A stretch of DNA of 64,000 nucleotides from Candidatus Danuiimicrobium aquiferis. GTDB taxonomy: Bacteria > Omnitrophota > Omnitrophia > Omnitrophales > Danuiimicrobiaceae. Both the position numbers and the translations under genes were made by a program. The DNA lies in assembly GCA_001804285.1 (NCBI GenBank), contig MHFR01000048.1, positions 43,622-107,621 on the forward strand, in the 5' to 3' direction. Positions within the stretch are counted from its first letter, which is position 1. Each line of letters starts with the position of its first letter. Under the pieces are notes generated by a model, which was not told where the DNA came from, searched no databases, and saw only the letters and a program-made list of their open reading frames with translations. Below are positions 2,891 to 48,600 of this stretch, one piece after another.

Positions 2891-4108
2891 TTAGGAAATA
2901 TATTCCCGGATAAGTTTCTGGTGAGGGACCGGAAACGAGAGGAGAACTAAGGTTTTTTGATCGACCCAGCGGGCAGATTGAAGGTTCTTTGCTTTTTCCC
3001 TCACCCTCTCCCTTAGGGAGAGGGTGAGGGGTAAATCCATTCTCCTATATTCCCGCTTTTCCGCCCAACAGGACGGCGGATTCGCCAGTTCTCGCCAAAC
3101 AGCGCAGCGAGTCCGACGCGTATTTTGGTGGATGTTAGGTGGACGCGGGGATGACATATGAACCACAACCGGCTCAATCCATAATGTTCGGTGAGTTAAT
3201 TGATGACGAAGTACTGGCAGTTTCTTTTCGATTTCAACTTGCATTCCGTAAGCCAATTTAAATTCCTGTTGAATCGCGTCTTCGGCTGACTCACCTTTTT
3301 GCCGGATGACACTCGGAAGTTCCCACAATCCGCCCCAAATGCCGTGGTTTGGTCGCTTGCGGACGAGGAGTCGTCCGCCGTTTTGAAGAATCGCCGCCGC
3401 CATTTTTATTTCTTTAATTGCCACATTTCGAGATTTTACCGGGACGTTTAATTCTTTCCCGCATTGATAGGCTTTGCACAATTGACGGACGGGACAAATG
3501 GCGCACCGGGGATTTTCCGGGACACAAATGATAGCGCCTAACTCCATTAACGCCTGGTTGAAATCCCCCGGTTTTTTTTGAGGAACGATTTTTTCGGCAA
3601 TGGTAAACATTATTTTAATGGTGTCAGGTTTTGAAATATCTTTTCGAATATAAAAAATTCTTGAAAAGACACGCGCTACGTTTCCGTCAACCAGGGGCAC
3701 GGGTTTTTGAAATGCGATGCTTGCGATTGCGCCGGCTGTGTACCGGCCGATTCCGGGTAGTTGCCGAAGTAATGCGGGATCGGATGGAATATGGCCGCCA
3801 AATTGATTCACAATCATTTTCGCGGCCTTGTGGAGATTCCGGGCTCGCGAATAATAGCCAAGCCCCTCCCAGAGTTTTAATACACGGTCAACCGGCGCGC
3901 GGGCGAGTACCCGGATATTTGAAAACGCTTTCAGCCAGCGGTCGTAGTAGGGAAGGACCGTTTTGATTTGAGTTTGCTGGAGCATGATTTCAACGACAAA
4001 GATGCGGTACGGGTCGACGTTCGGAATCCGCCACGGCAGCCGGCGCTTATTTTTTCCGAACCAGCGTAAAAGCTTAAATTGAAATGACTTATAATTAAAG
4101 CGTTTCAT
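2891..4108 (-). CDS. mutY: A/G-specific adenine DNA glycosylase MutY
   Basis: HhH-GPD motifs (LPGIGRYTAGAIASIAF, VDGNVARV) and a 4Cys FeS loop (CxxxxxxCxxCxxxxxC: CVPENPRCAICPVRQLC). N-terminus LLRWFGKNKRRLPWR matches the MutY start, so the start is placed at M of MKRFNYKS (4108) rather than the longer track ORF. C-terminal ~55 codons read through a palindromic repeat (2998-3031). Confidence 0.85.
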   Translation of the reverse strand: MKRFNYKSFQFKLLRWFGKNKRRLPWRIPNVDPYRIFVVEIMLQQTQIKTVLPYYDRWLKAFSNIRVLARAPVDRVLKLWEGLGYYSRARNLHKAAKMIVNQFGGHIPSDPALLRQLPGIGRYTAGAIASIAFQKPVPLVDGNVARVFSRIFYIRKDISKPDTIKIMFTIAEKIVPQKKPGDFNQALMELGAIICVPENPRCAICPVRQLCKAYQCGKELNVPVKSRNVAIKEIKMAAAILQNGGRLLVRKRPNHGIWGGLWELPSVIRQKGESAEDAIQQEFKLAYGMQVEIEKKLPVLRHQLTHRTLWIEPVVVHMSSPRPPNIHQNTRRTRCAVWRELANPPSCWAEKREYRRMDLPLTLSLRERVREKAKNLQSARWVDQKTLVLLSFPVPHQKLIREYIS

Positions 4109-27653: not shown

Positions 27654-30600
27654 ATGCATTTTGGGATTAAACAAAAAAACAAATCATTTAATCTAAGCGT
27701 AAAACGAGCCACTCTCTCTATTTTTTCATCCCGTTTTCTTCGTTCAATTGCCCTTGTTGTGTTGATTTGTTTTGTGACGACGAATATCACATGGGCAGAT
27801 GTGAGCGTTGGCGCATCGATCACCACCCTTCAAAATGAAATCCAATCGCTTGCCCTCAAGCCCTTTGCGATTCCCCGGGAAGCCGGACGGATCGAAGAAT
27901 TGTTTCTTCCTGACGGAATGTCCCCGGAAACACCGCTGATCGTCTATTTGCAGGATGCTCATACCAACTTGGGCGCGCAAGAGAATATCCAAAAAATTGT
28001 GCAGGAATTAGCGCCGAAACTCAAAATTGACACGGTCCTTGTCGAAGGCGGTACGGGCGAAATCGATTTGTCGGAATTGAAATCCTATCCGGATGAAAAA
28101 ATTAAAACCAACGTTACGCAGTTCTGGATGAAAGAAGCGGTTCTGAACGGAATCGAGCGCGCTGCGATATTAAGCAAAGCCAATTTCCGCCTCATTGGAA
28201 TTGAAGACAAGAATCTTTATGAAGAAGCCGGAAAGCACTTTGTAACGGCCAAGCAGGAATCGCAGGCATTTCTTGCCGAACTTGAGCCACGCTTGAAATT
28301 GATCAACGAAAAACGGAAAGCAAAATTCAATCAAGATTTGATGGTGTTCGATGATTTGACAAATATGTTCGAAAAGAAGCAGGAGCTCATGCCTCTTGTG
28401 AGCGTGATTGCCAATGAAGCCAGGAACCGCCATCTTGACCGCTGGAAATACGCGCAAGTTGAGAAGTTTATCAGTTTGATGCTGTTTGAAATTCGCGGTG
28501 GCAATCAGCAGCAACTTCTCAGAGCGAAAAAAGATTTAGACGCAAAACAATTTTTCAAAGAGCTTGAAGCTTTAAAACAAGAAGTCAAAGAATCGCTGTT
28601 TCAGAATGACGAAGAACGCGCGATTGACGCAGAGGCGCAGGGACTAAAGTTATTGCGCGATTTGGTGTCGCTCGAAGCCACGCCGGAGCAATATCAAAAT
28701 TTTCTGAAGGACCGCGAAAAGATTGAAAGATTGATTGAAAATAATTTTGGAATTCTGTCATCCCCGCATGCAGTAGGCGGGGATCCATGGATTCCCGCTT
28801 CCGCGGGAATGACAAAACCTCAAACGAATTCATCACTCGCCCTTGAATCCGCCATCGAATTTTACGAATCCGCAATTAAACGCGACGACATCTTATTTCA
28901 AAACCTGCAGGCGGCTCTATCAAAGCAATCTTCCAAACACATTTTTCTCGTCACCGGCGGATTTCATACGCCCGGCATTGTTGAAAAGTTGAAAAGCGCG
29001 AAGCTTTCGTACGTGCTCATTTCGCCGCAAGTGAGCGAAGAAGACAACGCCAGGCAATATTTAGAACGTGTCGCTGGCAAGCGCGCCGATTTGGAGGAAT
29101 TTAAATCAAAATACGGCCCTCACCCTAACCCTCTCCCTGAGGGAGAGGGCAGTCCAAATTTCTACAGGCAGTCCTCGCAGCGAAGCGGAGAGGGGAAGTT
29201 TAAGGGGACGGGTGAGGGGGAAACGTATGCCGTGCCCTCGGTCAGCCGGGCTGAAGTTGGAATCATCCGCGAATCCTTTGATTGGGCGGCAGAGCGATCT
29301 GGGGAGATCGACAATAGTCACTGGTCACCAGTCAATAGTGCCCCTTTTTCTACGAATGTCATCCCCGCAAAAGCGGGGATCCAGCGGGATTCCCGCCTCC
29401 GCGGGAATGACACAATATTCCGCTCCGAAGCGCGAAGTACGCAGAATCATGATCAGTACGATACCCCGGCCTATAGTCTTAATTCCGGTTTTGATTCAGA
29501 TGATACTGATGAAATTCAACGAATTTTGAGCGAGTTTCGCCGCATTTCCGGCATTTCTCGGAAAACGGTCCAACAATTTGCGAAGGAAGCTATTCAATCT
29601 GCAGGCAGCAAAGAGTTGCGGAGACTTCGCTTTGAATCAACGCCTCGCGAAAGATCAATATATTACTGGACTCTTTTGATTCTTGGCTGCATCACCGTCG
29701 GTTTAGGTGCCGCTTCAGCAGGTTGGGCGTGGTCCGCGGCCATCTTGCGGGATATGGGACAGAAGGATCATGTTTCATTTTGGACATCCGTTATTCCCAT
29801 GGCGATTGGGCTTGGGATTTTCATTGTCGGAGTCATTGTTTTAATTGCGCTTAACAGACCGTACCCGCTTAATGAAAAAAGTGTCTATGAACTCGCGTTG
29901 CGGTTTAAGTATCTTGATGGCGAAACATTTCGAAAACCATCCGATTCGGCAAACCTTCTCGCCCGTTCCGAAGTGCGTGGCGAAAGTGAAGCAAAAAAAC
30001 CGATTATTGATGTTCGCCGCCTTGAAGATCAGCACCATCGGCGATTTCAGGAACTCGTCGGGCTGTATCAAAAAATAAAACCCCAATCTGTAGCGGCTGA
30101 GATCAGGCTGTTTATTTTTGGCGCGATTTCTTTCATCAGTATGATAGTCGGTTTTTTTATGATGAGTAGTATCGAAAACCCCCGAGACCTTGTCACAATG
30201 ATAATGCCGTCTATCGCCATATCTCTTACGGCGCTTATGCCCACCATTTATTTTATGTGGAAAGCTAAAAAATTGGGGACACTTTTAAATAACATTCTGG
30301 GCAATTTCAGCGGCATGGAACTGACGAAAGAGGAACGCTCACAAAAACCGAAAAAATTAGAGCAGTTTTCTTTGAGATGGGGCGAGCGGTTTGATTTCGA
30401 GAGAAAACGGGGCAAACAATATCAGACGCCCAAATTGATTGAAGGCGGGCGGATGTTTGAAGAGGAAGGAGAATTTTTTTCATTGGATCAGAGGACGATC
30501 AATGATTTGGGTGTCGAATCGCTTTTGGAAAAACAGGATAGGACAAAGACAGGATTCGGACAGTCGCGGCTCGAATGGCTCATTAAACATCCGCTTCTAA

Positions 30601-33600
30601 CGCCGGGAAAAATCCGGGAACGGCAGGCGTCTATCGGTGAATTTATCCAAAATGAATCATTCCGGAAGATTATGGAAGAAAAATTTACACAATTGGGAGA
30701 AAAAATTCGAGACCGTGCCTTTTGGAGTTTTGACGTGCCGGATTTTCGCTACCGGCCGAATAAATGGATGGCGCTCGGGTTGACATTATGCAAATTTCTG
30801 CTGATTCCGGCGGGTATTTTATTGGCCGGCTATTCGTGGAAAATGCTTCCCGTTCCCTTTGTTTTGTTTTTAATGATTCGCAGCGCGTATCTGAATGAAA
30901 AAGTCATTCGAAGAGAATGGAAGGCGGTCGGAAAGTTTATCAATGAAATATTACCCGAACTTCGGCAAGCCGAATCGCCGTTACTTCAGAAAATTTACTC
31001 CGTGCTAAAGGATGCCGTCGATCCGCATGGCTCGGCCGGCATCGCTTCTTTTATCAACCGTCCCGGCATGTTGAATGGCGCGTGGGCGTATTTAAACAAA
31101 AGAAAAGAGTTACAGAGTGTCCTCGGCGCGATTGGCGAGCTTGAGAGCTTGTATTCCCAAGGGCAGGCGGCCGTTGACAATTTGGGATATCATGATTTTC
31201 CCGAAATATTGGATCGTGATACTTCCGTTTCTGGGCCAGAACAAGGCCGGCCGGTATTAAAGTTTGAAACGGAAAAATTGCATCATCCGGCCATTCCGTT
31301 TGAGAAATCCGTCGGAAATCCGGTCCGGTTCGCTTCGGATCATTCCTTTATGATTTTAACCGGCGCGAACATGGGCGGAAAATCGACCTTTCTCAAAACA
31401 TTGGCGCTTGCGATCATTCTCGCGCAAACGGGCGGGCCGATCCGCGGGTTCAACATGAAACTGACACCGGTCAAACTCATGACGCTTTTTGATGTCAGAG
31501 ATGACATTGCGGCAGGAAAGTCCAAATATGACGCACAGACAGACCGGCTCAAAGAAATGACTGATTTAGCGGCGTCAGATCCGAGAGTGATGTTATTTTT
31601 TGATGAAATGTTAAACGGAACCAACCCGGAAGATCATCTTGTGATCGAAGAAGGCACGATCCTCTACTTGGTGAAGCTCGGGATTTTCGGCATGTTAGCC
31701 ACGCATGATTTGGAAGTGACGGAACTCGAAACAGTCGAAAAGCAACCCGGCGTTTTCAATATGCATTTTGACGAAAAATTGGATGCCGACAGGAAGCCGC
31801 AAGCGGATTATGAGTTAAGCCAGGGACCCGTTGAAGGTTCAAACGCGATTTCCATTCTTGAAAGAAAAGGATATCCTCCGGAAATTATTGACGAAGCCAA
31901 ACGCCGCGCTCTGGTGAGACTGGAGAAAAAAGCAAAAGGGCAAGCACGGGCCGAAGTGCGCCACCTTGAAAATAGTGGCAAGGCGATTATTAATCGAGGC
32001 GCACGAGAGTCCTCGATACTTTCCAAGGGGCTTGTATCGAGGGCCGAAGTTCGTAACCTTGAGAATACAGAAGTCAGAAGTCAGAAGTCAGATATGTCAT
32101 TCCCGCAGGCTTCTGGCGGGAATCTGCGTTTGCTCGCCAGAGGCGAATTTGTCTTTGGCAGAGATTCCCGACAACAGATTTCGGGAATGACACCAGAATA
32201 TCGTTCCGAAGCCCGTGCGGATTCGGATTCCGACACGCCGGCTTATGTGTTGGATCCCGGTTTCGATCCAGAACAATATCCAGACGAAGTTCATACAATT
32301 CAACGAGCATTAACTAAAATTCGCCAAATCACAAACAAAAGCCAGGCAGAAGTTCAAACGGAAGCGAATAAACATATTCGCTTTAGCAATAATTATCCAT
32401 ACGCGCTATTGTGGCATAGCGAACCGGGATTATTTAACTTTGCCAGGGCAAAATGGAAATTTTTTCTGCTTGCCGGATTATGCCTCGCTTGTTTGCCATC
32501 TGCTGTGGCAATGTTTATATATTGGATTGCTCGACCTTTCAGTACCATACAGGAAGGAAGTGAATTTCATCACTCAAAATTCATTTTGTATTTTGGGCTT
32601 TTTCTTACTTTTGCGGGATATTATTTTTTACAAACATTTTTTGCTGCGCTGCCCGTGACGGAAGCGAATGTTTTCGCCATTTTTCGCGGAATCGATTTCA
32701 TCACGAAAGATGAATATCGGGATTTGACGTTAACTCTAAAGTCGTCGAACCCTTCTGCTGAAACTAGGGCTGAAGCGCGCGCGGAACCTGATTATGACAC
32801 GCCGGGATATAATTTAAGGCCGGGATTCGATGGCGACCAAATCAATACGCTTCAAGGCGCGTTAACCACAGTTCGGAAAGTAACGAAAAAGAGCAAGGAC
32901 GAAGTTCAGCGGGCCGCGAACAAATATCTCTGGCCATATCGCTTCCGTTTTTTCTCTTACTATGATGAAACGGGATTGTTCGACATCGCTCGTTTTAGAA
33001 ATCCGCCGGGAAAGATTCCCAATTATCTGCGTGCCTTTTTGAGTCCATCCGGACTTTTTTCCTTATTAGCCGCTTTGATTTTTGCGCTTGTTTTTGCCAT
33101 TCCTGTTGCTTTAGCGCAACGCTCTTTTATGAGAATGGTCCATGATGTCATGACAACGCTTACTTTCCCGCTCGGAATACAAATAGATGACGCGGCCGAA
33201 AGATTGCCTGCCTATACGCGCATGATTACCAATCCCTATTGGTGGGGAATTGTCTTTTTTATGGCCAATATATGGGCGGCAGCAACAGTGCTGAAATTGT
33301 TACGGGTCACGGAAGCGAACATTTATACCATTTTGTACCGTGTCGGATTCCTCACGAAAGACGAATATGAAGATTTGCTGAAAACTCTGGAATCGTCGCA
33401 ACCTCTTGGTCAAGAAACGCTTTCCGGGTCACGTTCTGCGGACAAACGGAAAATCGGGAGAAGGTCGCCCATTGAAGCGGCTTCCAATTATCTTTTGATG
33501 GGATTCGCCGAAGCGCGGCATCTTGCGCGCCTCCACCAACAAGCCATGCGCCTATCCGCTGCCGGGAGATATGTGCCCGCAAGAAACTTGCGTTTAAAAA

Positions 33601-36600
33601 CGATGATTTGGCGGGGAATTGTTATTAAGGGCGGAAAATGGATTGATATTTTTCAGTTGGTCAAAGAGTTCATGCGGGGATGGTTCGATATTTTTGATCT
33701 GCCCAAGAAGTTAATTAATCAACAAAGCATTCAGTTTCTTTCCTATGAATATTTAGGCGAAAGATATCATCGAGAAATGTTTCTTGATAGCGAAGAAGGA
33801 AATGCTCTCTACGGATTATTGGATGAAATGAAAAATGATCCGAAACGGTTTCCGGGAATTGATTGGTCGAAACATTCGGCCATTTATGGACATTGGGAAG
33901 TGTCGAGTTACCGGTATGAACGTTCCGAAGTTCGTAACCTTGCGCCGGAAAAGGGGACAGGCATATCCCTCAAAAGCGAACGATTGCCTGTCCCCTTTTC
34001 TGTTTTGACTTATGCTCCTGTGCTCTCGGCGGCGAAGTCCGCCGCCCGTTCCGAAACCCGCGCAGGAGCGGAAAAAGATCCGATCGGGCTGAGGAAAATA
34101 GAACAGATTGCCAGGGGATATAAAGATATCAGACGTTCGCGGCGAATGATTTATCCGAACATTATTCTTGATCGATGGCAATTGCCACCCGCTTTTGAAC
34201 CATACCAGGACGCCGTTCTCAACAGAAGAGCTCCCGAGTTTGAGGCGGGGATGGGCGTTGCTTTGATTGTGCCAGGTGAAGATATTAAAGCGGCGCTTCG
34301 AAAGAAGAAAGAACCAGAGGAACGGGTACAAGCGTTAATACGCCTCATCGAAACGATGGTAATTAAGGGGATCATGAAAGCGTGGCACGCGCGTGTTTTG
34401 AAATTCGGGTTAAAAGATGAAAAAAATCAATGGTCCGAAAAAGCGTTAAACAAGCCAGAAATCTTGCAAGTCGTGTTACAGGAATTGAGCGGTGAAAAAC
34501 TGGAAATTCTGAAACAATGCGTTGATATTTGGTTCAAGCGAATTCGAGAAGGACCGGAAGGGCGGTTGGGTAGCGGCTTGGTGTTGATTCAGAAAGACGC
34601 AGAACTTCTTTATGATTACCTCCGCAACGTTCATGCGCCTCATCAAAATTTGACGGGCTATCACAATATCGCAGGAAGCATTGTCGAATCTATTTTTCGG
34701 GGTGATATAGCGGCTAAAGTTCATTCTCTGGATGAATATGTTAAACAGTCCTGGGCGATGGAATTAACGGACGCGCTGCATACGTTAGAAACGCCAGCCA
34801 ATGCTTCGATTGCGGAAGCGGCCGTTGAACGAGTGACTCAAATTGCAGAACAATCGAAGAACAACCGGATCATCACGCTCGCCGGAAGTTTGGAAGATGC
34901 TTTAGCAGATGAAGAGCGGAAAAACAAATTGATTGCCAGAATCAAAACCATTTTGATAGATGAAAAATTAAAAGTGCTGGACTTTGCATTTTCCCGCCTG
35001 GAAGAAGCTGAAAAGCGCTTGCATGAAATGGAAGAATTCCAGCGTGAGCATCGGCACATGTTCACTATGCAAACCGACTATTATGCATTTGCGGATATTG
35101 CGGAAGGATATACGCGGCGCGTTGAAGAAATGTTCGGCCAAACGCCTAAGGATTATTCCGGACGCCGCATGAAGATGTTGATGAAAAATTTTGAAGAGAT
35201 GGAATTCCGGAACTTGGGAAGAAGCCAGCGTCAGGGTGGGGGACTACCTTTTACGACAGGTCTTCAGGTTGCAAAATTGTTGTGGGCGAGAGAGCGAAAG
35301 CCCGTTCGTGTATTGCGGGCTTTTAATCGCCTGATCAATAAGCAAGAATTGTTGGAAGCCGTAAAAGGTGTGAAAACCAGATCGAATGGTACCGCGAGGC
35401 CAGAAGAAGCAAAATCGCCGAAAGCGTATGTCGAGTTTCTGGGAGAGCACCGGATGAGTGCGATTGCTTTAGAGCTGGTGTATTACGGAATCGGAGAGGT
35501 GGCGCAGCAGCTCAGAGAAGATCTCGGGACCCACGCACAGGATGTCCTTGCTTATTTGAATAAAATGGAAATGCCTGCATTTCAGGGTGAGGGGGAATGG
35601 AAGGAAAAGTTGCATAAGCAAACAGCTGCCATTTTGAAGGCGTTGCGAGACATCGAGGGCATATTTGAAAAAGATGATGCAGAAAAAGATATATCTAAAA
35701 AACTATCGATTAACAAACGGGCTTCGATTGTATTCGAGCACGCGGCCAGGCTTCACCAAGAAATGGATCCAAGCTGGTTTCCGAATGATCGCACGATTGA
35801 TTTACTTCTACTTTACTGGACGAATACGTTTAAGGTGGGCGGAGCGGACCGTATTCACGAAGCGCTCGGCTCTATTTTGGAAAACGATTTATTCTATGAT
35901 TTCGAAGACGGAAAACGGAAACAAAAATCACCGGATGAAATTCTCAAGTTACTTGACACAAACCGCGCCCTTTCCCAATTGGCAACATTTGAGAGGAGGC
36001 AGCTTAAAAGCGTGCTATTTGAATTGGGCTTGATTAATCCCGAAGACGTGTATCCCGCCATGTTTAAATATGTGATGGAAAAAATCGGAACTGCAAAACC
36101 GCGCATGGTTGTTTTTTACGACCGGCATCTTCCGCTTGAAAACTCTTCCCCCATTATTGAAAGGATCGTCAAATCCGGGAAATATTCTTCCGATGATATT
36201 ATTTTTGTTCCATGGCCGGAATATACGACACCGCTTGGAGAGACGGTTGCTATTGCTGACGGGCTGATGGACTTGATGCGGCAAATGGCAAATCCGGAAC
36301 GGGGCAAACAGGTGCTTCCGGTTAAAAAATATTCGGTACGAGATCAACAATGGTTTGGAGAATTTGTGATCCGGGAAATTGCCGGAAAAATTTTCGAGCC
36401 GGAGGAACAAACAGCCCTTTTTCAGCAACAACAAAGGATCGGGACGAAATCATGGGGAGATATCGGGCCAATGCTCAAGAGTAGGCTGGGGAGTTTAGTC
36501 ATGAAGCCGTTATTGGCGGAAGCGGAAAAAAGAATCAAAGCAATTCATAGACCTGCGACTCAAGAAACGGGGGAAGGGGACGAGGAGACTCGAAGGTATG

Positions 36601-39600
36601 AGAGAGCTCTTTGGGATCGGTCTGGCGCTGTGACGAGGGAGACGAAACGGTTGATCGAAAAATTTTATGGTATGTTAAATGACGTGATGAACCGGATCGA
36701 TATCGGGAAACAGGCGGGCATTGAAGATGTTGAATTTCCGCCGAGCGAAGAACAATTCATTTATGCGCTGTTCCTCTATATGATGAAAAAAAGTTATCCG
36801 GACATGTTGTTTGTTTCTGTTCACCGTGATGTCATAATCAAAAAATCCGAAGATATTCAGTGGACGCTCGAAGAACTCCAGCAAGGTTTCCGATTGGTTA
36901 CGACCGACAAGGCAAAAGAAATTCATCAAGGACTCGAAATTCCGCAATTGTCGTGGAGAAAAAGATCACGGCAGGCGCATATTCATTTGGCGGTGGAGCA
37001 ACTTGTTTCTGCCAGGCGTGTCAATGCAGAAGTTCCTATTGTTTTTGTTGAGCTCAAACAGGATGCGCAAAAAATAGAATCAGTGCCGCAAGAAACATTG
37101 GCAAAGGCAATTTTGGGTTTATATGCTTTGAGCCTGTCGAATTTTGCTTCCTATTTTACTATTAGAGATGTTGTCCCTTCCCGAAGTGGTGTTTTGGGTG
37201 ACCCATATCGGATAGCGGATTATTTGTTAAGACCGGAGCCGGAAACAGAGGCGCAAATTGAACAAGGGGCAAAGGCTCTTGGGGAAAATTATTTCGATCG
37301 TGTTCTAACAAAAATGAAAGGGCAAGCCCGGGCCGAAGCGCGGAGTGATTTGAAGAGGCGGTCATTTGCCGAGGTTTTGTGGAATTATTTGTGGATGCCG
37401 AAGGAGGCCATTCAACTTGCAAAGTTGCATGCTGAAGCAAGAAAACTGGCACATGCGGGAAAATTTGATCAAGCCCGGGAACTTCGGATCAAGATATTTA
37501 TTTGGAGAGAAGTTGTTCTCGAAAAAGATCGTTGGTTAGGACCGGATCAATTTCGTGAAGCGATGTTTGGAGATTCTTCAATCGATTCTTTATTCATGAA
37601 TTTTGTTCAACATAAAATGCATCATGATGCGCCGACCCACTCAGATCAGATTGAAACGGTTGTCGATTTACTTTGGGAGGTTGAAAGCGATCACGTACAT
37701 TTTCCGGGATTCAGGGTGATTGTAGATGTCCGGAAAGGCCCGCAGGGGGTTGCGTGCCGTTATGATGAAAAGAAGCGATCAGAAGCGAGAAACGGAGAAG
37801 TCGCGAAGGAAATCCCTGAGGAGTTGGATTTTTACATTAAAGAGTTTTTATCGATTTTGCCGGAAAATAAACGTCCGAATATTAAAAAATTCAAAGCCGC
37901 AAATCAAGTGATCCGGACGAACTTGAACGATCCGGTACGTATTAAATATAAATTGCCGGTTACCATTGTTTTTAGACCCGAGTTTTTTATCCGCGGATTG
38001 CCGCCCGATTTACAACCCCGGGGGATGCCGTGGCAATTGGTATATACCAATCACGATTTGGCGGATGAGGCTTTTGAGTCTTTATTGGTTATCCACGGGA
38101 ATAAGGAAATTGAGGAGGTCAATCTTTCACAGGGCCCTGTGGATTATTTCATTTCTTCAAGCGAAAAGGCTTACCGGCATAAACGCCGGTCGATTTTGAG
38201 TTTTACACCGCTTGAAGGAAGAACCATGGATGACGTAAACCAGGGCACCAGTTATTTAGACGGTGCGTTTTCGGCGATTGTTGCAAAACCAATCAAAAGC
38301 AAAGGGGAATTAACAGAAAAACAACTTCAGAAAAAAACAGATGAACAGAAAAGAAAAATCATTGAGTTGTGGACGAAGTCGCTGGTAAATATTGGGATTT
38401 TGGGACAGGTATACATTGCGTCAACCGGAAACTTGATGCAGGCGGAAGAAATGGATTTGATTATCCAGTATGCATATGACATGGAATCTCTCGAGGAAGC
38501 AGAACAGAGACAGATGGCGCGTGGACAGCCATCCGGGGCAGTGGATTATCAGCCGGTATTTGGCCGAAGAGATTTACCTCCCGCGGTCGGAGTTTCCGAT
38601 GTAAATTTAGGAATTCCAAAGAAGAAATGGAAAATTCAAGGAATTGGCCCCGTGAATGCGATTCTTGCGCTGATCAAACATCCTGTGATTCAAAAAAAAT
38701 ATTTCGGGGGACAAGAACCGCCGCAAGTCAATGTCGGATTCTTTGGCTTTGGTCGTGTGGCCGCTCAAATGGCGAGTGTGGTGATATACGATTATGCGAA
38801 TATAACCCCCATTCAATTTAGCGGAATTATTGATGAAGCCCGGCAAATTTATTCGAAATGGGGAGAACTTCCCGTGCCCGTTCTTCAGGAATTGATTCGA
38901 CGGGTGAATCAGCGAGCAGATAGTCCGTTGCAAAAGTTGGCGCGCAGATTCCGGCGTTATGGTGTGCGAGAGCTTTCCAGCAATTCGGTACAACAAAAAG
39001 TATTGTCGGAAAATATTGATGTGCTTGTGCTTGCTTCGCCGCCGCAAACATTTGGAGAGAAAGAGGCCGAACGTTTTGAGGGGAAAATAGTTATCGAAGC
39101 CAACCAAAATGTGGCGACGAAAAAAGCCATTCAGATATTGAATCAACGAGGGATTAAATTTGTACCTTATTCGACGGTCAATATCGGAGAATCCTACGCT
39201 GCGCGCCATGAATTTGCGAATCCCTTTATGAAAGCCCCACGTTACGATAAAGAGTTTTATGTACTTAACGGAATCGTCGGGCATACATTCGCCAATATTT
39301 GGATGGGACTCGAATCGTTTGAGAAAAACCGTCTAAATCAGTGGAAAACGCTGATTCTATGGATTGTATCAGCTGCGCTGATTGGAACTGCCAGCGGATG
39401 GCTGGGAGGAATCCTTTTATCGATTCCCTTGATTGGAATTTCTGTCGGTTTTTCCCTTGGAACGATTGCTGGACTGATTGCGGCTTATATATTCGAGCCG
39501 CAAGCCGCGAAATCCATGGTTCAAACCGTGGGTGAACTCAATGAACGGATGAATCGTGAAATCGATGCGCTTGTTGTCGAAATGTATCACTTAACGCCGG

Positions 39601-42600
39601 AACTACATGATTTCAAACAAGACGAACAGAATAAAACCCAGTTGAGGGCTATTTGCAATAGACTTTTATCGAGGATTAAAGAGAAGAAATTAAGCGCGGA
39701 GCAAAAGAGGCAGTATTATCGCATTTTGGGGAAGATATACTTGCTAATGAGCCAAAAGGGAAGAAATGAGACTTATATGCCTTATGTTGTGGCATTAAAA
39801 ATTGCTGTGTTTCAGGAAGTTAATGCCGTGATTATCTCAAAAAGTTACGATTTAAAAAAATTGAAAGAACATCTTCGGTATCCCCAAAAATCAGATGCGA
39901 TTCAAAAACGAGTTGCGGCATTCGTAATCGGACAAGCGCGGCATGAGCCGAAGGATATTCCCGAAATCGTTGAGGCGTTGGGGGATCAGCTGATTAAAAG
40001 CGATGATTATCATGTCAGAGCAGAATGCGCGAAAGCTCTTGGATTAATCCGGCATTCAAAGGGGAAATCTTATTTGTTCATGTCGTTTTTTAGCACGAAG
40101 GAAACAGATTCAAGCGTGAAGGAATGGGTGGAATGGGCACTTGCCAGATATAATGTTAATTGGGAAGCGAATGCCGAGGCATATTATGAGAAAGAGCTTT
40201 TACCGATCCAGAGAAGAATTGAACAATTTGAAAGAATAACGGATTTGCGGAAAAGCACCCAACCCCGGCCGGCTTTTTGGGAACAAATCAAAGAAGGGCT
40301 GCAGTCTTTTCAGTCTTTATATAGAAAAGCCGGGCAGACTTATTTTGAATATGCACAAATGAAGCGGATGGAAGGGGATGATGAAACGGCTCTTAAACAT
40401 TATAAAGAAGCGATCAATTTGCTCGGCAAAGCGGGGTGGGAGGGCAATGCATTTCCATTTATTGTTCAACAGGAAATCGCTGAAATCTATTGGACGTTAA
40501 ATCAACCGGCGAAAATGCGTGAAGCACTTTTAAAGATGATTTTACCCGGCGCAGCATTTGAATTGGTCAAAGGCAAGGAGATAAAAGAGCAACGAAACAT
40601 TCAAGATTTCTTGATGCCGATTGAAATATACCAGCGATTGGCGTTTGAGCGGTTTTTCATCTGGAATGGATTTAAACCGGAAACGGCAGAAGTGATGGCG
40701 GCCGCGCTGAATCATTATATTGAGAGGAAATATAATGAACTCATACACGATTTTGGTTATGTCGGCAAAATGGACGAAGTCGATGCCAGGGAGCAACTGA
40801 TTCGAAAAGATATTGAAATTCTTGAAGAAATTAATAAAAAAATTATCCCAAAACTTTACATCGAAGATGAAAAAGCAGGAAAAATTCCATTTCTCAAATT
40901 AATGATTCTGGTGACAACCAATATGTATTATCAGCGCTTTCCCAAACTCATGCAATGGATTGTTCAAACTTTGAGCGAAGAAAAAATTCCACCGGAAATT
41001 CAAAAGCCGACCAATCCGGAAGCAAAATTCCTTCAGGATCTTTTTGTGGAAATTGGGCTTATCCAGGGTTCGAACGAGGGGGCGGCCGGCGGACGTAGCG
41101 AAATCCGTTCAAAAGGGGAAGAGTATCTTAATAGGCATGCGTTGATCAATGAATTTGGGACATTCAAAAGAGCGAATTTAGAAAAAGAATTTATGCCATT
41201 CCTGAATCAGCTGAAGTCGCAAGACTCCGTGCTGATTGAACGTGGATTCGAGAACATCAAACAACATTTAAATGCGGAGCTTAAACGGGCGAAGCAGCTT
41301 AGCAGACAGGATGAAGCGAAACGAGTGCGTTCGTTTGTGGCCGGAAGACTCGTTGCGATGATCCCGAGAATGAAGGAAAGATACATTCCGAATGTAGTCG
41401 AACTCTATGAAATACTTTTAGGGTCGATGACTTATTCCGTTTCCAGGTATCTTGGGTCGGGCGTCGCGCGTGACCCGGAAACGCAGATCCGTATCCGTCT
41501 TTTAAAGATTCTGCAGAAAGGCTCTGAAACCGGCACGCGGCCAAATATTGCAATCAGTATTCTTAAAAGTGAAACATTCGCAGGCAGTCGCGGTTTATTA
41601 AAGACTGAACCGGAAAAAGAATATTTGAAAATTGTTGATCAAACTATTTTAAAACGGATCGCGAAGGCATTCCGCGCGGGAGATGCGAGGCAACGTTTGT
41701 CGCTACTTCAGGACCTGCTCGAAGGAGTGCGCGCGTCGAAAGGTTTCGCAATCGAAGTTTCAAATCAGTCTTTATCCTCGCTTTTGGTCGGGGTTCTTGG
41801 CCGTTTCCGTTTTTCAGTTGAGGAATCAATCATCATGAATGAAATTAAAAAGACCGTGGAAAACCAGGCAGCTTCTCCGCTCATCCGGCAAGTTCGTAGG
41901 GCGATGGTTTTCGGGATGCTCAATCCGCCTGTCTATCAAAATCTTGACGATATATATTTTTATGATTCCGACCGGGCCATCTATCACGCGGCTATTCTTT
42001 TGGAGCATGGATTGATTCCGTTGATTCATTTGCCTGTTTTTGCATCGGGCATACAAGACAAAAATGATTTGCATAAAGAGCAGAAATATTCCGAACAAAT
42101 TTTTTCCGGGATTAAACGGCTAAGAAAAGAAAATCCAAAAGCGCTTTTGGCGGTGGGTGGAATTAAAAATTTTCAAGCCGCAATGAGAGCTGTCGAAAAC
42201 GGAGTGAATGTATTATTTGTTTCAAAATCACTGTCTTCGAGGCAGATTAAAAAATTAAAGTGGTATGCGGAAAAAATTCATCCGGAAAATCCGGATATTT
42301 TGGTCCTTTCAGGTGTTGAACGGGGTAAGAAAATGACACGGGGGCTAAATCGGCAAACAGGCGGCGGATTTCTGGCGCTCGATAAGCCTGAGGAAGCTGC
42401 GGTAAACGAAGATGAGATTCAGCGGCTGAAAAGGCTTCAAGAAAAACGCCCGCAAAATGTCTTCGGTTTTTATTGGTTGTTTTTAAACCGAGCGGTTGAA
42501 GAAGCTATGAAAACACCGGCCGATTTTATAGTGGTAGATGCGGAATTTTCTTTAGGGACTCAAGCCGAGATCACTGCGCAATGGCTCGAAAATTTGAAGA

Positions 42601-45600
42601 ATGAAACGATCCAACAGAGAATACGCCAGCGCCGACTGGATAAAAGAACGGTTTCTGGAAAACCGGAAGGACGGGCCGAGGTTCGTAACCTTGAAAGTAA
42701 TTCCAATCGGTTATCAACAGGGACGAACGAAAGTACTTTTAAACTTCCGAAGAGAAGTTTAAAACGTGCCGAAGCTCGGTCCCCGATAGCTGATTTGGCG
42801 AAAAAAGGTCAAGTAGCGAACATGTTTTCCGAGGAAGATCCGTCTGTGGTTTATTTGGCGGCGAAAAAAATGAAAGATGCGGCGGGAACCGTTCTTGCCC
42901 ACCGGATGAGTGCGATCGATAAAGACTTGGTTGGGCCAGTTTTTGGATTGGTGATCGAAACGGATGAGGGGCAATCCTTTCTGATTCAACGGTTGGCTGA
43001 AGGAACTTTTGACGAGAACATTCAAACCAGAGAATGGATTGCGGTTCATACGGTTCAGGAAACCCGCGCCGGACCGGAAACAGACGATCAAAGTTGGACG
43101 ATTATTTCAGAGCAGCCTCAGTATCTTACCACACCGGAAGCCATTCAAAATATCCGCTTAGGCGAACATGTTCAAATTGCTTATCAGCAAAAAACAGAAA
43201 AAAATCAGGCAGCAATTATTTTAACCGCACCCAATTCAACAGATCGCCGGAAACTAACCATTTATTCAGTTGAGATTCTTCCGGAAGGAATTCAAGCGGT
43301 AGACTCGACGGCTGATGACGCGGAGGCTATAGATCCTTATTTATATGATTTTCAAGATCAAGAACCGGGGAGCGCTGTTGTAGAAGAGAGAGCGCCGAAG
43401 CGAACGGTTCCTGATTTTTCTGATACCTTAGCGCCAAAAGCCAAAAAGGCGCCTCGTTCTTTTGCTTCGGCTAAGAAAAGAATTTTCCGCGCGTTGAAAC
43501 GAATTCCGTTTTTATTCTTTGTTTTTCTGATTGGCGGAAGCGTTGTCCTTTCTTATTTTTATATTCACAGCCTTGAAACAGAAACGATGCGAGGCGTTAC
43601 ATATCAGCATCTTCCTTTTGTTGCAAGCCAGATTGAATGGAAAGATTTAACTCGCGAAAGATATTTATCCAATAATCCGAATTCAACGGTAGATGATGTG
43701 TTGACGTCCGAACTTGCCGAGCCCATACGAATGCTTGCCCAATATAATCAGCAACGGTGGCTTCAGATTTACCGGATTGAAATTGCGAATGCAAAAGTTC
43801 CCGTATCTCAGCCGGCGCAAACCGGAAACAATTTTCGTGTCGGGGCAACTCCTGTTTCCAACGAAACAAAACCAGCCCTTCAAATCGGTGTTTTTCATGA
43901 CCGGACATTGGGGGAACCCAACCCGCCATTTCCGCAGGAAACGATTGTCTCCCTTGATCCGTTAGATCGTAAAGCACTGCATCAGTTTAAAGTGGCGGTG
44001 TATGGGAAGCCGGCCGCGCAATACAACTTGGATTTTGCTCGTCAGCAAAAAGATGCCATTACCTATTGGACATATTTTTATTTATTTGCCGGTGTCATTA
44101 TTTTTGCCGCGGGATTGGTCAGTGAATTTGTATTCCGCAAAAGCCGAATTATCAGGCGTGAAAATATTCGCGCGGACCGACGAGAGAGAAACGCACGCGA
44201 ATTCCGGCAAGCCGAAGGTCATTCGGGGCGAACAGAAGGCGGTGAACGAGGAAGGGCCGAAGTGCGTGCCGCGAAAAACGTTTTTAGATTAAAGGTAGTT
44301 GTGGTCCCGGGGCTTAGCCGGTACCGTGAAATTGAAGGCCATCAGGTTTTTACAAAGCCTTTGGCGGATATGACGGATGAGATGAGGCGGAAACTCAACG
44401 AATGGTTTAAGCCGTTTATGGGAGAAGGCTTTTATCAATTTGTGACAACAACCGGAATGCCGGATTTTATATTTTTGACGAAAGTACAAATTGTGTCGGG
44501 AAATGTGATCAAGCAAACGTTGGAAGATGAGTCCGGCGCCGAGCCGGCGGAGGCTGACCAAAGCTATCAACTCATCACGTTTATTCCGCTAACACCTTTT
44601 GCTGTCCAGCAAACCGGTTTATTTAAAACATTGGTTCGCGAATATATGAAACAAGCCAATATAAAAGAGCCTATTTATTTTTTACGGAGCCATGTTTATC
44701 GGACAACCACTCCTGAAGTGAATATAGAACAAAAGGAAGAATCAAGAGAAATTACCATTACGCGTTCAGGGCATTCAAGCCTTGTGATTGAAGAAATGGG
44801 GCGTGCCGAAGGTCGCAACCTTGCACCGGAAAAGGGAACAGGCATATTACTCAAAAGAGAACAATTGCCTGTCCCCTTTTCCGGTAAATCCGAGCTGCGC
44901 CACATTGAAAATAGTTCCGAGTTTTCAGTTCCGAGTTTCAGGTTAGGACGAATGGATCAACTCGAAACTCAATTCAGGGCCGAAGCCCGTAACGAAATTG
45001 CTGCGGAACTCAATCCGGGATTGGAAGCAGTTTTTATCCGGGCGCCGAAGAACGTGCTGGCAGGTATTGTAAAAGAGCTTTATCCAACCGATGATGCACG
45101 CCGGACCGGATTCCTGAATTTAATCCAAAATCCGGAAGCGGATCACGATCGCTGGCTCCCCGTAGGCCATCGATTACTTCTCGGCTGGTGGAGAGAAGCG
45201 CCTTATGCGGGGACGATGGTTTTGACATTTGATTTGCGAAAATTAAATGCCGCGCAAATTCGGGAATTCAAGCGTAAACGCGAAGGAAAGCACGCACTTG
45301 AAGGTGATTTCTGGCTTTACATTAATCGGGTTATCAGACGGATAACTGGCCAATCGATTGAGTTAGGCGGGGTTGAATCTGACGATAAGACGCTTTCTCC
45401 TGAAGAATTGCTTTTGCGATTGAAAATTCTTGAGCCAACCTGGACTTCCGGGAATATTGACGCACTGATTCACGTCGGAAATTTTTTCCGGGCAAAAGGA
45501 GATTTGGGACGTGCAGAGTTTTTTCTCAGAAAAGCAGCGGAGCTTCTTCCGGAAAACGAAGATTCGTTTTGGCGGGATCAACAGGCGAAAAAAATAATTA

Positions 45601-48600
45601 ATATTCTCACGGCTGCTTATGAAAATGTGGCAACAGAATATATTAAAATCGGGGATCGCGACAGTTTGCAAAAAGCCAGAACGCTTTTGGATTTTGTCTT
45701 CTATGGATTACTTAATCAATATCCTTTAAAGGATTCAGTTGCCCGCGTGGCCGGTCGTTATAATCAGCTCGTCGGTATTTTATATCACAGAGATTTAAGA
45801 GATGCAGGGGATGCGTTAAAGAAAGAAATCAGTTTGCTTAGGCAATATCGGGTGGCATCGCGGGTACCCGAACAGGCAAAATATGTGTTTGGAACAACCT
45901 TGAAATTAATTCGGGCATACTGGGGAGAATCGCCGTCGACATGGGGTCTTCGCACTTATCAAAATAGACACGAAGGAGCGATGCGTAGGCGTGACGATGC
46001 GATCGAATGGATGAAAATAGCGGAAACATTAACGGGAGATCCCGAATTTAGGGCTCATATGACGGATGCGCAAATCCGGGATTTTGAAAAAATGAAAACA
46101 TATTATGGCGGTTTGCAAGGGGAGTTCAGCTGGATCACAAATGGTGACTATGGCACTCCCGGACATATGATGCTGGAATTCCGGGGTGCAATGCATCATC
46201 AGGATATTCAAGCGATTCAGCGGCGTTCACCTTTAGTGTTAAAGCATATTGAGTATTGCAGGAATAATAGAACAAACAGGAGATTACAGCCCCAAGAGCG
46301 GCTGATCATGCGCGAAATTCGTTCGTTTGAGAAACGGCATGAGTGGGATGATGTTAACCGTTCAGAAGACGAAACGCGGAGGTCGGAAGCGCGCGAGGAA
46401 TCTGCCGAGAAACGCGAACTTCCCGAAGAAATACAAGCGGCGGTTGAATTAATTCGTCAGGCAATGGAATCATTCCAAGCCGGAACAAAAGAACGGGAGC
46501 GAATGAAATGGGCTTATCAGTATTTTACGGAATTATTTCAAAAAGGAAAACTCCGGATTGAAATTATCGAAGGCTATGAGACATTTGCAAGTAAAGGCAG
46601 TACGGATCATGACCCAATGGTGATCAAGGTCGGGGCGCAAAATCTCGCAAGCCCCGAAATTACGGCGCGGGCGCTTATTGTTGGATTTTATTTGCTGTAT
46701 TTAAAGCCGGAAAATAAAACGGAACCGGTCTTTAAAAAGACGGTAATTGGAAAAGCAAAGTGGTTAACGGAAAAGACGGATTTTCATTTTCCTAAAACGC
46801 CGGCAGAAAAAAGCGAAGAAGGGGCGTTGCGGGCAATTGGGCCTCAAACGGTAAAAGAGTTGGGTGAACTTAAAGATCATTTGGCGTCGATCCGGTCGGA
46901 GTCCGCAAAAGAAGCGGCGCGTGATGCAAGGAATGTTCAAGTTGATCCTGTGATGGTTCAGGCCTTGCAACAGTTTGCGAATGAGAGCAAAGGCAATCTT
47001 ACGGAGGCGTGGCGGCTTTATGCCGAAATTCTGAATGAACATCTTGAACACCGGCAATCGGAAAAACTGGTTCAGTTTTTGACGCAATTTTTAAATACGT
47101 TTTTAATTGTGGTTGCCAAAAGGAGTACATTCCAGGACCTATTCTTAGAAGTCCCCGAATCATTTGCTGAAACGCTCATTGATTATTTTAATTCTCCCGC
47201 GCCGGGGCAGGGAGGGATTGATGATTACCGTGCATTACTTCTGGAATCAATTCGGTCCATTAATCCGGACGCATTGGACCGTTTCATCGGTAACAAAGCG
47301 CTTTTGTTTGGGATTGCAAAGATGATTGAATCGGCCGAGGTCAGTGTGAAAATTGCCCGCGGAAAAATATCATCGTCCCGGATTTCGGCAACTGCGGCCG
47401 CAGGCCGGCAAACATTAAGAGAATTAGCGGCCCAAGCGGGCGGAAATTTACTCCCGTTACTCGAAGGGGCGAGAGTGATTACGGATACAGGTCGTTTGCT
47501 TCCAGGTCCGGAACCGAGTGGTGCCGGTGCTGATGGTGTGCTGGCTCCGGGGACTGTCCGGCCCGTAAAAGATCATCTTCCCGTAAACGCGGAATATAAG
47601 GGTTTTCAGGCAGCGCTTCGAAATGCGCTTAAAGCGGCTTTAAAGAAAAAACCAATTCCGTCGTTTGTTGAATTTGCAGAACGCGAAGTCCCAAGGCTCC
47701 TTGAAAATATGCATCACGCATTTGAGCAAAGAGAGAACAAGATTCGCGGAGGGCTGGACGAGCTTTCTGAGTGGCTGAAATTCTTGCATAATCAGGTTGC
47801 GGGTGGCGGCCCCCTGAATGGGGATTGGGCAACTTTTATTTCTAAAACCGAGGGAGCAGAATTTCAAGGGGCCGGAAAAGATTTGGGAAAAGAAAAATTA
47901 TCCGAACTTTATACCGTTATTTTCCTTGCGCAAACGATTTATGCCTATTTGCATGCCGGCCGGTATCAAACGACTGCTGCCGATGCTCGCAATGAAATTA
48001 ATAATCGTTTAAAAGCGCTGGCTGAGAGCGAAGGGCCTCCTGTTTTTAGCGCGGTTCAGCAGTGGTTTACGCGTTTTGAGCATGACGTTCAAACGGCCGA
48101 AACGCAAGCGGCAACACAGGCATCGATTATTCAAGCAAGACGGGACGATTATGAAGCGCGGACAACCAAAGTGCGAAGGCCGAAAGAAGGGGCAGGGGCG
48201 GCGGCTCACGTGGAATCAAACGCTATTCCGGTGGCGGAAGAACCGCAGGCCATTGCTCAGGAGCCGACGTTTAAAGGATTTCAGCAACGGTTGGTCCATG
48301 CGAAACTGAATGCGACGATATTAAATGCGGACCGCGAAAAAGCAATGGCGACTTTGGTTTTCTTGGTTGCGGGTGAGGAGAAAAAAGGGCTTGAAGCCAT
48401 GCCGGCATATCTGGCAAGGACAAAAGACAATTATGACAAGGGACGGAGAACTTTGTTGATGCAGCTTCACCCGGATCGGTTAAGAAGAAAACCTACGGCG
48501 GTAGAACAGAAAATATATCAATTTTTTGATCAATACAAAGATTTTCCGGGAACCGGACAAGGATTTAAAACGGGCGGGGATTTCGGGACGCAGTTGGTTG

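Follow-up and report, generated by a model that had tools for sequence, protein, structure and literature searches.

An apparent glutamate dehydrogenase-fold pseudoenzyme joined to HEAT repeats in a giant protein of the Omnitrophota

How a domain resembling the nucleotide-binding half of a glutamate dehydrogenase (GDH) comes to lie deep inside a very large bacterial protein, and what it might do there, is the question raised by a stretch of 64,000 nucleotides (nt) from Candidatus Danuiimicrobium aquiferis (Omnitrophota; assembly GCA_001804285.1, contig MHFR01000048.1, positions 43,622 to 107,621 of the forward strand), which was analysed as a whole and is referred to here as the window. A sequence-only reading of the window had placed a degenerate GDH-type domain at 38590-39230, within the following open reading frame (ORF):

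27654..49532, plus strand: giant ORF of 7,292 amino acids (aa; 21.9 kb), host of the GDH-like and HEAT-repeat unit

The interval corresponds to aa ~3646-3859 of the 7,292-aa protein, in agreement with the suggested depth of about 3,650 residues, and the two strings quoted in that reading are present in this ORF, GFFGFGRVAAQMA at aa 3695-3707 and KIVIEANQNVATKKAIQILNQRGIKFVPYSTVNIGESYAARHEF at aa 3811-3854. The homology of this region to the dinucleotide-binding domain of the Glu/Leu/Phe/Val dehydrogenases is genuine, and so is the resemblance first noticed in its letters. The Pfam profile ELFV_dehydrog (PF00208) matches aa 3697-3859, covering profile positions 37-186 of 241, and on isolated segments it scores above the curated cutoff (E 1.2e-6 to 3.6e-6; 27.3-28.9 bits, cutoff 23.4). 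On 4,000-aa pieces of the protein the score is borderline (23.1-23.3 bits), and single-sequence matches in the PDB are weak (E 0.005), the best 16 all being glutamate dehydrogenases. The borderline Pfam score in a long-protein context and the weakness of the PDB matches are what could be said in favour of a chance or generic Rossmann resemblance with no specific homology to GDH, an alternative to be weighed against the relatives and the predicted fold of the module.

The relatives are few. With aa 3380-3990 as query, HMMER was run exhaustively over 1.84 billion cluster representatives and returned 24, of which eight have E < 1e-30. Almost all of the 24 are parts of proteins 1,000-4,249 aa long, and the region common to them is aa ~3382-3896. 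A word-indexed protein search gave no homologues with a 550-aa segment as query, and just four ordinary GDHs with the family alignment. When one genome per species was scanned for related loci with a 5-sequence sub-alignment, two loci (L001 and L002) were obtained, a 5,988-aa ORF in a Candidatus Omnitrophota metagenome-assembled genome and a 4,254-aa ORF of an uncultured bacterium; L001 and the protein P0008 belong to the Omnitrophota. The window segment and 18 trimmed homologues were combined in an alignment, A1, which splits into two clades. Clade A comprises 14 sequences including the window copy, all from proteins of more than 1.1 kaa (thousand aa) except P0005, P0007 and the truncated P0011. 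Clade B comprises five sequences of ~750 aa, among them P0014, P0016, P0018 and P0024, which keep the motifs GKGGxRY, AMxxK, DGGK, AGPDM, QGFGDVGG, EGANN and NGGGV. On its contig, P0016 is a single free-standing gene in which HEAT repeats come after ELFV_dehydrog, and similar lengths suggest that the other clade B proteins are free-standing as well. In public annotation, clade B proteins are hypothetical or GDH/leucine dehydrogenase (P0018, HKI37690.1, is a hypothetical protein of a Gemmataceae bacterium), and members of the family are 'hypothetical' or 'HEAT repeat protein'. In P0014 and P0018 (A1 columns ~275-315), the block containing the KGGxR strand (…AVTAVYGD…GKGGVRF…) follows the DGGK loop rather than preceding it, an order that suggests a local rearrangement or permutation of the strands of domain I.

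By sequence, clade B links the window module firmly to GDH, because its members match ELFV_dehydrog at E 1e-26 to 1e-35 and the window module at E 4.6e-13 to 8.8e-4 against the whole 1.84-billion library. PF00208 is matched by 14 of the 19 family segments. A profile built from A1 finds GDHs in the PDB at E 1.3e-22, some of the alignments beginning at about position 131, inside domain I, and a profile of clade A only, compared by hhalign with two bona fide GDHs, aligns end to end over 408 columns (probability 93%, E 4e-8). The large NAD-dependent GDHs, which had been put forward as the only precedent for such a fold in a very large protein, are not the source of this similarity. Their Bac_GDH profile (PF05088) has no match on the window at E <= 10 in Pfam, and the clade A hidden Markov model (HMM) gives 22-29 bits on small hexameric GDHs and 13.7 bits on P0027, a protein of the Bac_GDH type (PF05088 and PF00208); kinship with Bac_GDH was rejected on these grounds. 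Of the two profiles proposed as a check, ELFV_dehydrog is significant and Bac_GDH is silent. The closest relatives are instead unannotated GDH-like and HEAT units in Omnitrophota giants, and the free-standing ~750-aa proteins.

The homology extends well beyond the 210 residues first delimited. AlphaFold2, supplied with the 19-sequence alignment A1, clade B included, gave a 525-residue model with a mean pLDDT (predicted local distance difference test score) of 88.6 and a pTM (predicted template modelling score) of 0.89. In a Foldseek search of the PDB with this model, the top 50 matches are all GDHs (E down to 4.6e-20), with target-normalised template modelling scores of 0.58-0.71 over ~435-560 columns, covering whole GDH chains. 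The structure prediction called for in the sequence-only reading thus gives a GDH fold. According to the model, aa 3380-3896 (~515 aa) form a complete two-domain GDH fold, beginning ~270 residues upstream of the interval first reported; the degenerate character attributed to the domain stands, and its extent does not. The parts of the unit are:

37791..37955, plus strand: aa 3380-3434, N-terminal extension modelled as helices and a short strand, conserved in both clades
37956..38618, plus strand: aa ~3435-3655, degenerate GDH domain I (substrate/oligomerisation), placed by hhalign and predicted structure, without a Pfam ELFV_dehydrog_N match
38133..38147, plus strand: aa 3494-3498, GPVDY loop, equivalent of the GDH 'KGGxR' by column alignment
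38256..38276, plus strand: aa 3535-3541, LDGAFSA, aligned equivalent of the active-site block GG[SAG]KGG
38415..38432, plus strand: aa 3588-3593, IASTGN, aligned equivalent of the GDH 'PAPD'
38619..39248, plus strand: aa ~3656-3865, GDH domain II, Rossmann-type dinucleotide-binding (Pfam ELFV_dehydrog, PDB, model)
38745..38762, plus strand: aa 3698-3703, GFGRVA (G-x-G-x-x-A), between predicted strand β1 VNVGFF and helix αA
39093..39215, plus strand: aa 3814-3854, IEANQNV ... VPYSTVNIGESYAARHEF, aligned equivalent of 'EGANGP ... IPD..NAGGV.VSYFEW'
39249..39341, plus strand: aa 3866-3896, long C-terminal helix of the GDH fold with the clade motif dGI.g.TLaN.W (alignment and model)
39342..39494, plus strand: aa ~3897-3947, hydrophobic hairpin of two transmembrane (TM)-like helices (hydrophobicity; weak DUF1269 match)
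39888..40145, plus strand: aa 4079-4164, HEAT_2 repeats (Pfam)

Judging from the AlphaFold2 model and from the Foldseek alignment to whole GDH chains, a degenerate catalytic domain is predicted to be present upstream of domain II, its fold kept but unrecognisable to the Pfam model PF02812 (ELFV_dehydrog_N), which has no match on the window module at E <= 10 and matches two of the 19 family members weakly. With these results the chance resemblance raised above can be judged. Every significant match is an ELFV dehydrogenase and no other Rossmann family turned up, the homology continues through domain I, whose fold is not of the Rossmann type, and with clade B as intermediate the link to GDH reaches E 1e-30 or better. 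The A1 profile, the hhalign comparison, the Foldseek matches and clade B refute this alternative and leave it with virtually no probability.

Having the fold does not imply having the activity. For comparison of the catalytic columns, two control GDHs (P0025 and P0026) were added to the family alignment, and residue roles were taken from Clostridium symbiosum GDH, in which K89, K113, K125 and D165 are the relevant residues. In the window protein these blocks read:

KGGxR block, plus strand, Q-GPV-D-Y: Lys replaced by Gln3493, Arg by Asp3497
M..K.A block, plus strand, TMDDVNQ: Lys replaced by Val3528
GG[SAG]KGG block, plus strand, LDGAFSA: catalytic Lys replaced by Phe3539
PAPD block, plus strand, IASTGN: catalytic Asp replaced by Gly3592

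Neither of the catalytic residues, Lys and Asp, nor either of the substrate lysines is accordingly retained, which answers the call for a test of the catalytic residues. The PROSITE signature PS00074, [LIV]-x(2)-G-G-[SAG]-K-x-[GV]-x(3)-[DNST]-[PL], matches both control GDHs and has no hit anywhere in the giant protein or among the family members. It had been noted that no GGGKGG block is visible upstream; this holds for the motif, but the homologous loop, LDGAFSA, and a whole degenerate catalytic domain are there. The NCBIfam equivalogs GdhA_Arch (18.8-20.1 bits, cutoff 750) and GdhB_Halo (16.6 bits, cutoff 620) are far below their thresholds. To judge from its residues, the module lacks the catalytic machinery and would be a GDH-fold pseudoenzyme.

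The replacements are not confined to the window copy. In clade A, the catalytic Asp is Gly in 13 of 13 sequences, the Asn of 'GAN' is Pro in 12 of 14 (Gln in the window copy), IPD has become IPY and NAG has become NIG, each in 12 of 14, and the catalytic Lys position is occupied in the other members by His, Tyr or Ala, with His in most. Fifty columns are at least 75% conserved at an overall identity of merely 23-39%, and the loops lining the cleft are the most conserved parts. Because clade A has fixed alternative residues at the catalytic positions, the loss of catalysis appears to be old and to have been followed by purifying selection. This pattern bears on two alternatives. One is a functionless relic in decay, in which a captured enzyme domain drifts neutrally within a very long ORF; the missing catalytic residues, the variable cofactor motifs and the great rarity of the family would fit such a relic, but the conserved columns, the confident prediction of a full fold, the joint retention of the unit and its HEAT partner in several lineages, and 21.9 kb of ORF free of frameshifts and stops make it quite improbable. 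The other is an active oxidoreductase with altered chemistry, in which residues conserved in the clade would have taken over from the Lys/Asp set. The intact fold and Rossmann core of the window copy, the newly fixed residues at active-site positions and the His in place of the catalytic Lys in most members speak for it. Yet the catalytic Lys position varies (Phe, His, Tyr or Ala, with Phe in the window protein), the catalytic Asp is Gly in all members, both substrate-carboxylate lysines are gone, and many members are without the cofactor motif, and we regard retained catalysis as highly improbable, more so than decay.

The state of the nucleotide-binding site is less uniform. In the predicted structure of the window copy, the βαβ elements follow each other in the classical order, with strand VNVGFF, the GFGRVA motif, helix RVAAQMASVVIYD, strand IQFSGII and Asp3727; the Rossmann fingerprint, G-x-G-x-x-[GA] between β1 and αA with an acidic residue ending β2, is found. 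Binding of NAD(P)(H) by the window copy is therefore a possibility that its residues leave in place. Across clade A the picture differs. In about six of the 14 members (P0005, P0007, P0009, P0010, P0012 and P0013) the glycine motif is broken or deleted, and in four of the 14 it occurs together with the β2 acidic residue. Because the motif is not conserved across the clade, binding or sensing of NAD(P)(H) would not, on sequence grounds, qualify as the conserved function of clade A.

The main rival to a non-catalytic binding or assembly role is a sensor of NAD(P)(H) or amino acids, in which the dead clamshell would bind a ligand and relay redox or metabolite state to neighbouring modules. The ADP-binding fingerprint of the window copy (GFGRVA with Asp3727 after β2) would suit a sensor, as would the retention in 13 of 14 clade A members of Glu3815 and Asn3843, which are conserved in all GDHs, and the peak of clade conservation at the cleft-lining loops. 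It is harder to reconcile with a dinucleotide site that is not under clade-wide selection and with the replaced Asn of 'GAN', and a module located outside the cytoplasm would have no NAD(H). We consider a sensor unlikely, though less so than the other alternatives discussed here.

The GDH-like module is not isolated within the protein. When the giant protein is compared by BLAST with the ORFs of L001 and L002, the homology runs collinearly along aa 3390-4486, and the unit so defined is bracketed by a pentapeptide, described below, in the window protein (aa 3375 and 4481), in L001 (aa 3039 and 4144) and in L002 (aa 717 and 1695). HEAT_2 follows the GDH-like part in the window protein, in P0007 and P0008, and in the free-standing P0014, P0016 and P0024; the combination of GDH and HEAT is probably ancestral. 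Between the two parts in the window protein, two TM helices had been noted at 39300-39500, and they are real (nt ~39342-39494). Since a hairpin occurs at this position only in the window protein and in P0001, it appears to be a lineage-specific insertion.

The explanation that we favour, and regard as probable, is that of a GDH-fold pseudoenzyme joined to an α-solenoid, probably recruited from an active, free-standing GDH-HEAT protein and serving in non-catalytic binding or assembly, possibly with a retained dinucleotide. The pseudoenzyme at aa 3380-3896 would constitute the first half of a conserved unit of ~1,100 aa, in which the GDH-like domain is followed by a membrane hairpin (in the window lineage) and then by HEAT/TPR-like helical repeats, the whole being bracketed by the pentapeptide. 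Such a unit probably descends from free-standing ~750-aa GDH-like and HEAT proteins that possessed the catalytic residues. After its capture into multi-module Omnitrophota giants, the Lys/Lys/Lys/Asp set would have been replaced, and the same loops lining the cleft would then have acquired new, fixed residues. As a closed and rigid clamshell, the GDH part could act together with the HEAT solenoid as a platform for non-catalytic binding or assembly, which in the window protein would be tethered to the membrane through the hairpin. With its βαβ fingerprint intact, the window copy may moreover still bind NAD(P)(H) as a structural ligand. A 'nucleotide-sensing or structural relic', as the sequence-only reading had it, is still the best class of explanation, with the reservation that NAD sensing is not clade-wide.

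Several points weigh against this explanation. From the single sequence (aa 3501-3880), AlphaFold2 reaches a pLDDT of only 35, and the alignment used for the confident model contains the GDH-like clade B, which could bias the model towards GDH. As the hairpin is found in two family members only, the conserved function does not include attachment to the membrane. The topology signs conflict, the signal-like N-terminal segment pointing to an extracytoplasmic location and the positive flanks of the hairpin to a cytoplasmic one; if the N-terminus is a signal peptide, a cofactor-less relic would lie outside the cell. The direction from free-standing to embedded is read from residue states rather than from a rooted tree, and a scaffold role is the default that we infer for a conserved dead enzyme beside HEAT repeats.

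The borders of the unit coincide with a short peptide that recurs throughout the protein. In the giant protein there are 19 copies of the pentapeptide R[AS]E[AVLI]R, where residue shuffles predict 0.38 (at most 4 in 2,000); all other six-frame ORFs of the window, 21,296 residues in total, contain one. The 19 positions below are given for the looser form [RK][AS]E[AVLITG]R:

29421, 29964, 31947, 32040, 32202, 32766, 33921, 34047, 37329 and 37776, plus strand: first bases of pentapeptide copies, first part
41094, 42672, 42765, 44253, 44802, 44886, 44976, 46380 and 48858, plus strand: first bases of pentapeptide copies, second part, 15 nt each
37776..37790, plus strand: RSEAR (aa 3375-3379), directly before the GDH-like unit
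41094..41108, plus strand: RSEIR (aa 4481-4485), where the homology to the L001 and L002 units ends

The units of L001 and L002 likewise close with RSELR and RSEVR. A pentapeptide also precedes the unit in P0002 (L002), P0003, P0006, P0008 and P0010, making six proteins with that of the window, and the homologous giants carry 6-10 copies each, mostly RSELR. The copies sit at module borders. Because the codons vary, including a TCN/AGC switch at serine, selection on the pentapeptide would seem to act at the peptide level. A DNA repeat was rejected for the same reason as a general explanation; a subset of copies does share DNA similarity over 26-80 nt, with internal palindromes. Small palindrome-containing DNA repeats, translated in frame, occur within linkers at 33921-34000, 44802-44881, 28789-28817, 29387-29415 and 32095-32192. 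Among these linker sequences, an 80-nt element (two copies, 89% identical) encodes NLAPEKGTGI.LK.E.LPVPFS right after the pentapeptide, and units resembling repetitive extragenic palindromic (REP) elements, GGATTCCCGC..GCGGGAATGACA, encode peptides of the IPASAGMT / RLRGNDT type, with HPNPLPEGEG (aa ~505) looking alike.

Literature searches on the pentapeptide strings returned nothing relevant. From its distribution, the pentapeptide may be a processing site or a punctuation between modules. That the giant ORF encodes a bacterial polyprotein with the pentapeptide as its processing site is a doubtful proposal, which we rate below the sensor discussed above. If it were true, cleavage would free, among other products, a membrane-anchored pseudo-GDH-HEAT protein of ~1,100 aa, which could form a multimeric platform through the GDH oligomerisation surface, and the N-terminal module found in the window protein and eight homologues might be the processing hydrolase. 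It would also supply the 'cleavage points' of Omnitrophota giant proteins, which are stated to be unknown (bioRxiv 10.1101/2023.11.21.568195).

That N-terminal module and the other recognisable parts of the giant protein, together with one overlapping frame, are:

27741-29117, plus strand: aa ~30-488, N-terminal module after the signal-like segment, conserved in homologues
30516-31907, plus strand: aa 955-1418, module of MutS domain III and MutS domain V (ABC-type ATPase) (Pfam, NCBIfam)
38607..39284, minus strand: antisense ORF of 225 aa, overlapping the GDH-like module

The protein begins with a signal-like hydrophobic segment, and the N-terminal module (~450 residues) that follows is shared with the N-termini of eight homologous giants (P0001, P0002, P0003, P0009, P0010, P0012, P0013 and P0019). 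Its invariant motifs are, in order, QDAH, (E)AQ, EG (E..G) and GGFH, and it could be a metal-dependent hydrolase. A profile of the module gave nothing significant against the PDB (best E 1.2), and Pfam gave a single weak match to ChaN of the Tiki superfamily (E 0.17, in one of seven members); on these two results, assignment as a Tiki/TraB/ChaN-type hydrolase was set aside. The protein also holds several TM pairs, TPR-like regions and the MutS_III/V ATPase module, for which Pfam MutS_V gives E 7.7e-22 and the NCBIfam MutS/MutS2/KamC models give partial matches far under their cutoffs. Hydrophobic segments at aa 1039-1073 separate MutS_III from MutS_V, and others flank the module at aa 819-865 and 1604-1622. 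Three paralogous modules at 29421-29960, 32202-32765 and 32766-33400 (starting at aa 590, 1517 and 1705) open with R[AS]EAR...D(T/S)..DTP(A/G)Y.L.(S/P)GFD...IQ(R/G)AL, followed by hydrophobic segments, and a 108-nt direct repeat of 70% identity is common to the second and third. No family was detected in the ~520 residues between the RSEIR that closes the unit and the next RAEVR (41109-42671, aa 4486-5006), and this stretch has no counterpart within the L001 or L002 units. The antisense ORF is a shadow ORF, because both homologous loci are without a long antisense frame (longest antisense frames of 95 and 109 codons in the matching regions of L001 and L002). Around the giant ORF lie genes for a HAD hydrolase, a menaquinone biosynthesis protein, an M24 peptidase, split transketolase subunits and a GGDEF/EAL regulator. 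One transketolase subunit is identical in sequence to proteins of Omnitrophica RIFCSP groundwater metagenome-assembled genomes ('Candidatus Danuiimicrobium aquiferis'), which places the window in the Omnitrophota. Rfam and tRNA scans of the whole window found no RNA features.

With the GDH-like unit, a ~1,100-aa stretch of largely unannotated Omnitrophota giants gains a confident structural identity, a dead GDH fold with HEAT repeats, and a plausible origin in free-standing and, by their residues, apparently active GDH-HEAT proteins of the Planctomycetes-Verrucomicrobia-Chlamydiae (PVC) group. It illustrates the recruitment of a housekeeping enzyme fold as a non-catalytic building block and delimits a family that has no name and is very rare, numbering 24 representatives in 1.84 billion clusters. 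The coincidence of module borders with an over-represented pentapeptide offers a testable candidate for the subdivision of giant proteins.

Among known systems, Omnitrophota giants have been described that interleave enzyme-like domains with HEAT/TPR scaffolds (bioRxiv 10.1101/2023.11.21.568195; 10.64898/2026.06.07.730766). The 'Archaeovorins' among them feature numerous TM regions, a divergent SecA DEAD helicase domain and often C39/S8 peptidases (bioRxiv 10.1101/2023.11.21.568195). The window protein resembles the 'Archaeovorins' and 'multi-enzyme metabolic cluster' giants in its Omnitrophota origin, very long ORF, many hydrophobic segments and divergent metabolic-enzyme folds among HEAT/TPR scaffolding, but those proteins measure >10-147 kaa compared with 7.3 kaa here. 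Of the Archaeovorin traits, TM-like segments are present in the giant protein, and SecA_DEAD, C39 and S8 were not found in it (Pfam E <= 1, NCBIfam E <= 0.1), although highly divergent domains could escape these models. Neither a GDH/ELFV nor a MutS domain is mentioned in the main texts of bioRxiv 10.1101/2023.11.21.568195 and 10.64898/2026.06.07.730766, and PF00208 and PF00488 are not in one supplement of the latter, the coverage of the 2023 preprint being its main text. Literature searches for GDH pseudoenzymes and for GDH combined with HEAT returned nothing relevant.

As for enzymes of the GDH family, the large NAD-GDHs (Bac_GDH, PF05088, ~1,000-1,600 aa) similarly carry a GDH catalytic core within a much longer polypeptide, but they are active, whereas the window module has neither the catalytic residues nor a PF05088 match. 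Clade B proteins share the N-terminal extension, the GDH-like core and the downstream HEAT_2 repeats with the window module, and differ in keeping KGGxR, the second Lys, DGGK, GPD, GFGDVGG, EGANN and NGGGV. The closest known fold is that of the small hexameric GDHs of Thermococcus profundus (1euz/8zmu), Thermotoga maritima (2tmg/1b26) and Pyrobaculum islandicum (1v9l). Common to these and the module are the two-domain fold over ~450 positions, the order of the conserved loops, the Rossmann βαβ with GxGxxA and the β2 Asp, the Glu of 'EGAN' and the Asn of 'NAGG'. Unlike them, with which it shares 12-17% identity, the module lacks the catalytic Lys/Asp, the substrate lysines and a PS00074 match, has a ~50-aa N-terminal extension and internal insertions, and is located ~3,380 residues into a 7,292-aa protein with a hairpin and HEAT repeats after it. 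A GDH-fold subunit of a different kind is Thermus thermophilus GdhA, a poorly active, regulatory component of the GdhA-GdhB hetero-hexamer, whose structure (PDB 3aoe) is among both the sequence and the fold matches of the module. A sensor of the type considered above would resemble GdhA in being a GDH-fold subunit that is regulatory rather than catalytic, but GdhA has the ordinary size of a GDH, of which it is a free-standing paralogue, and it assembles with an active partner.

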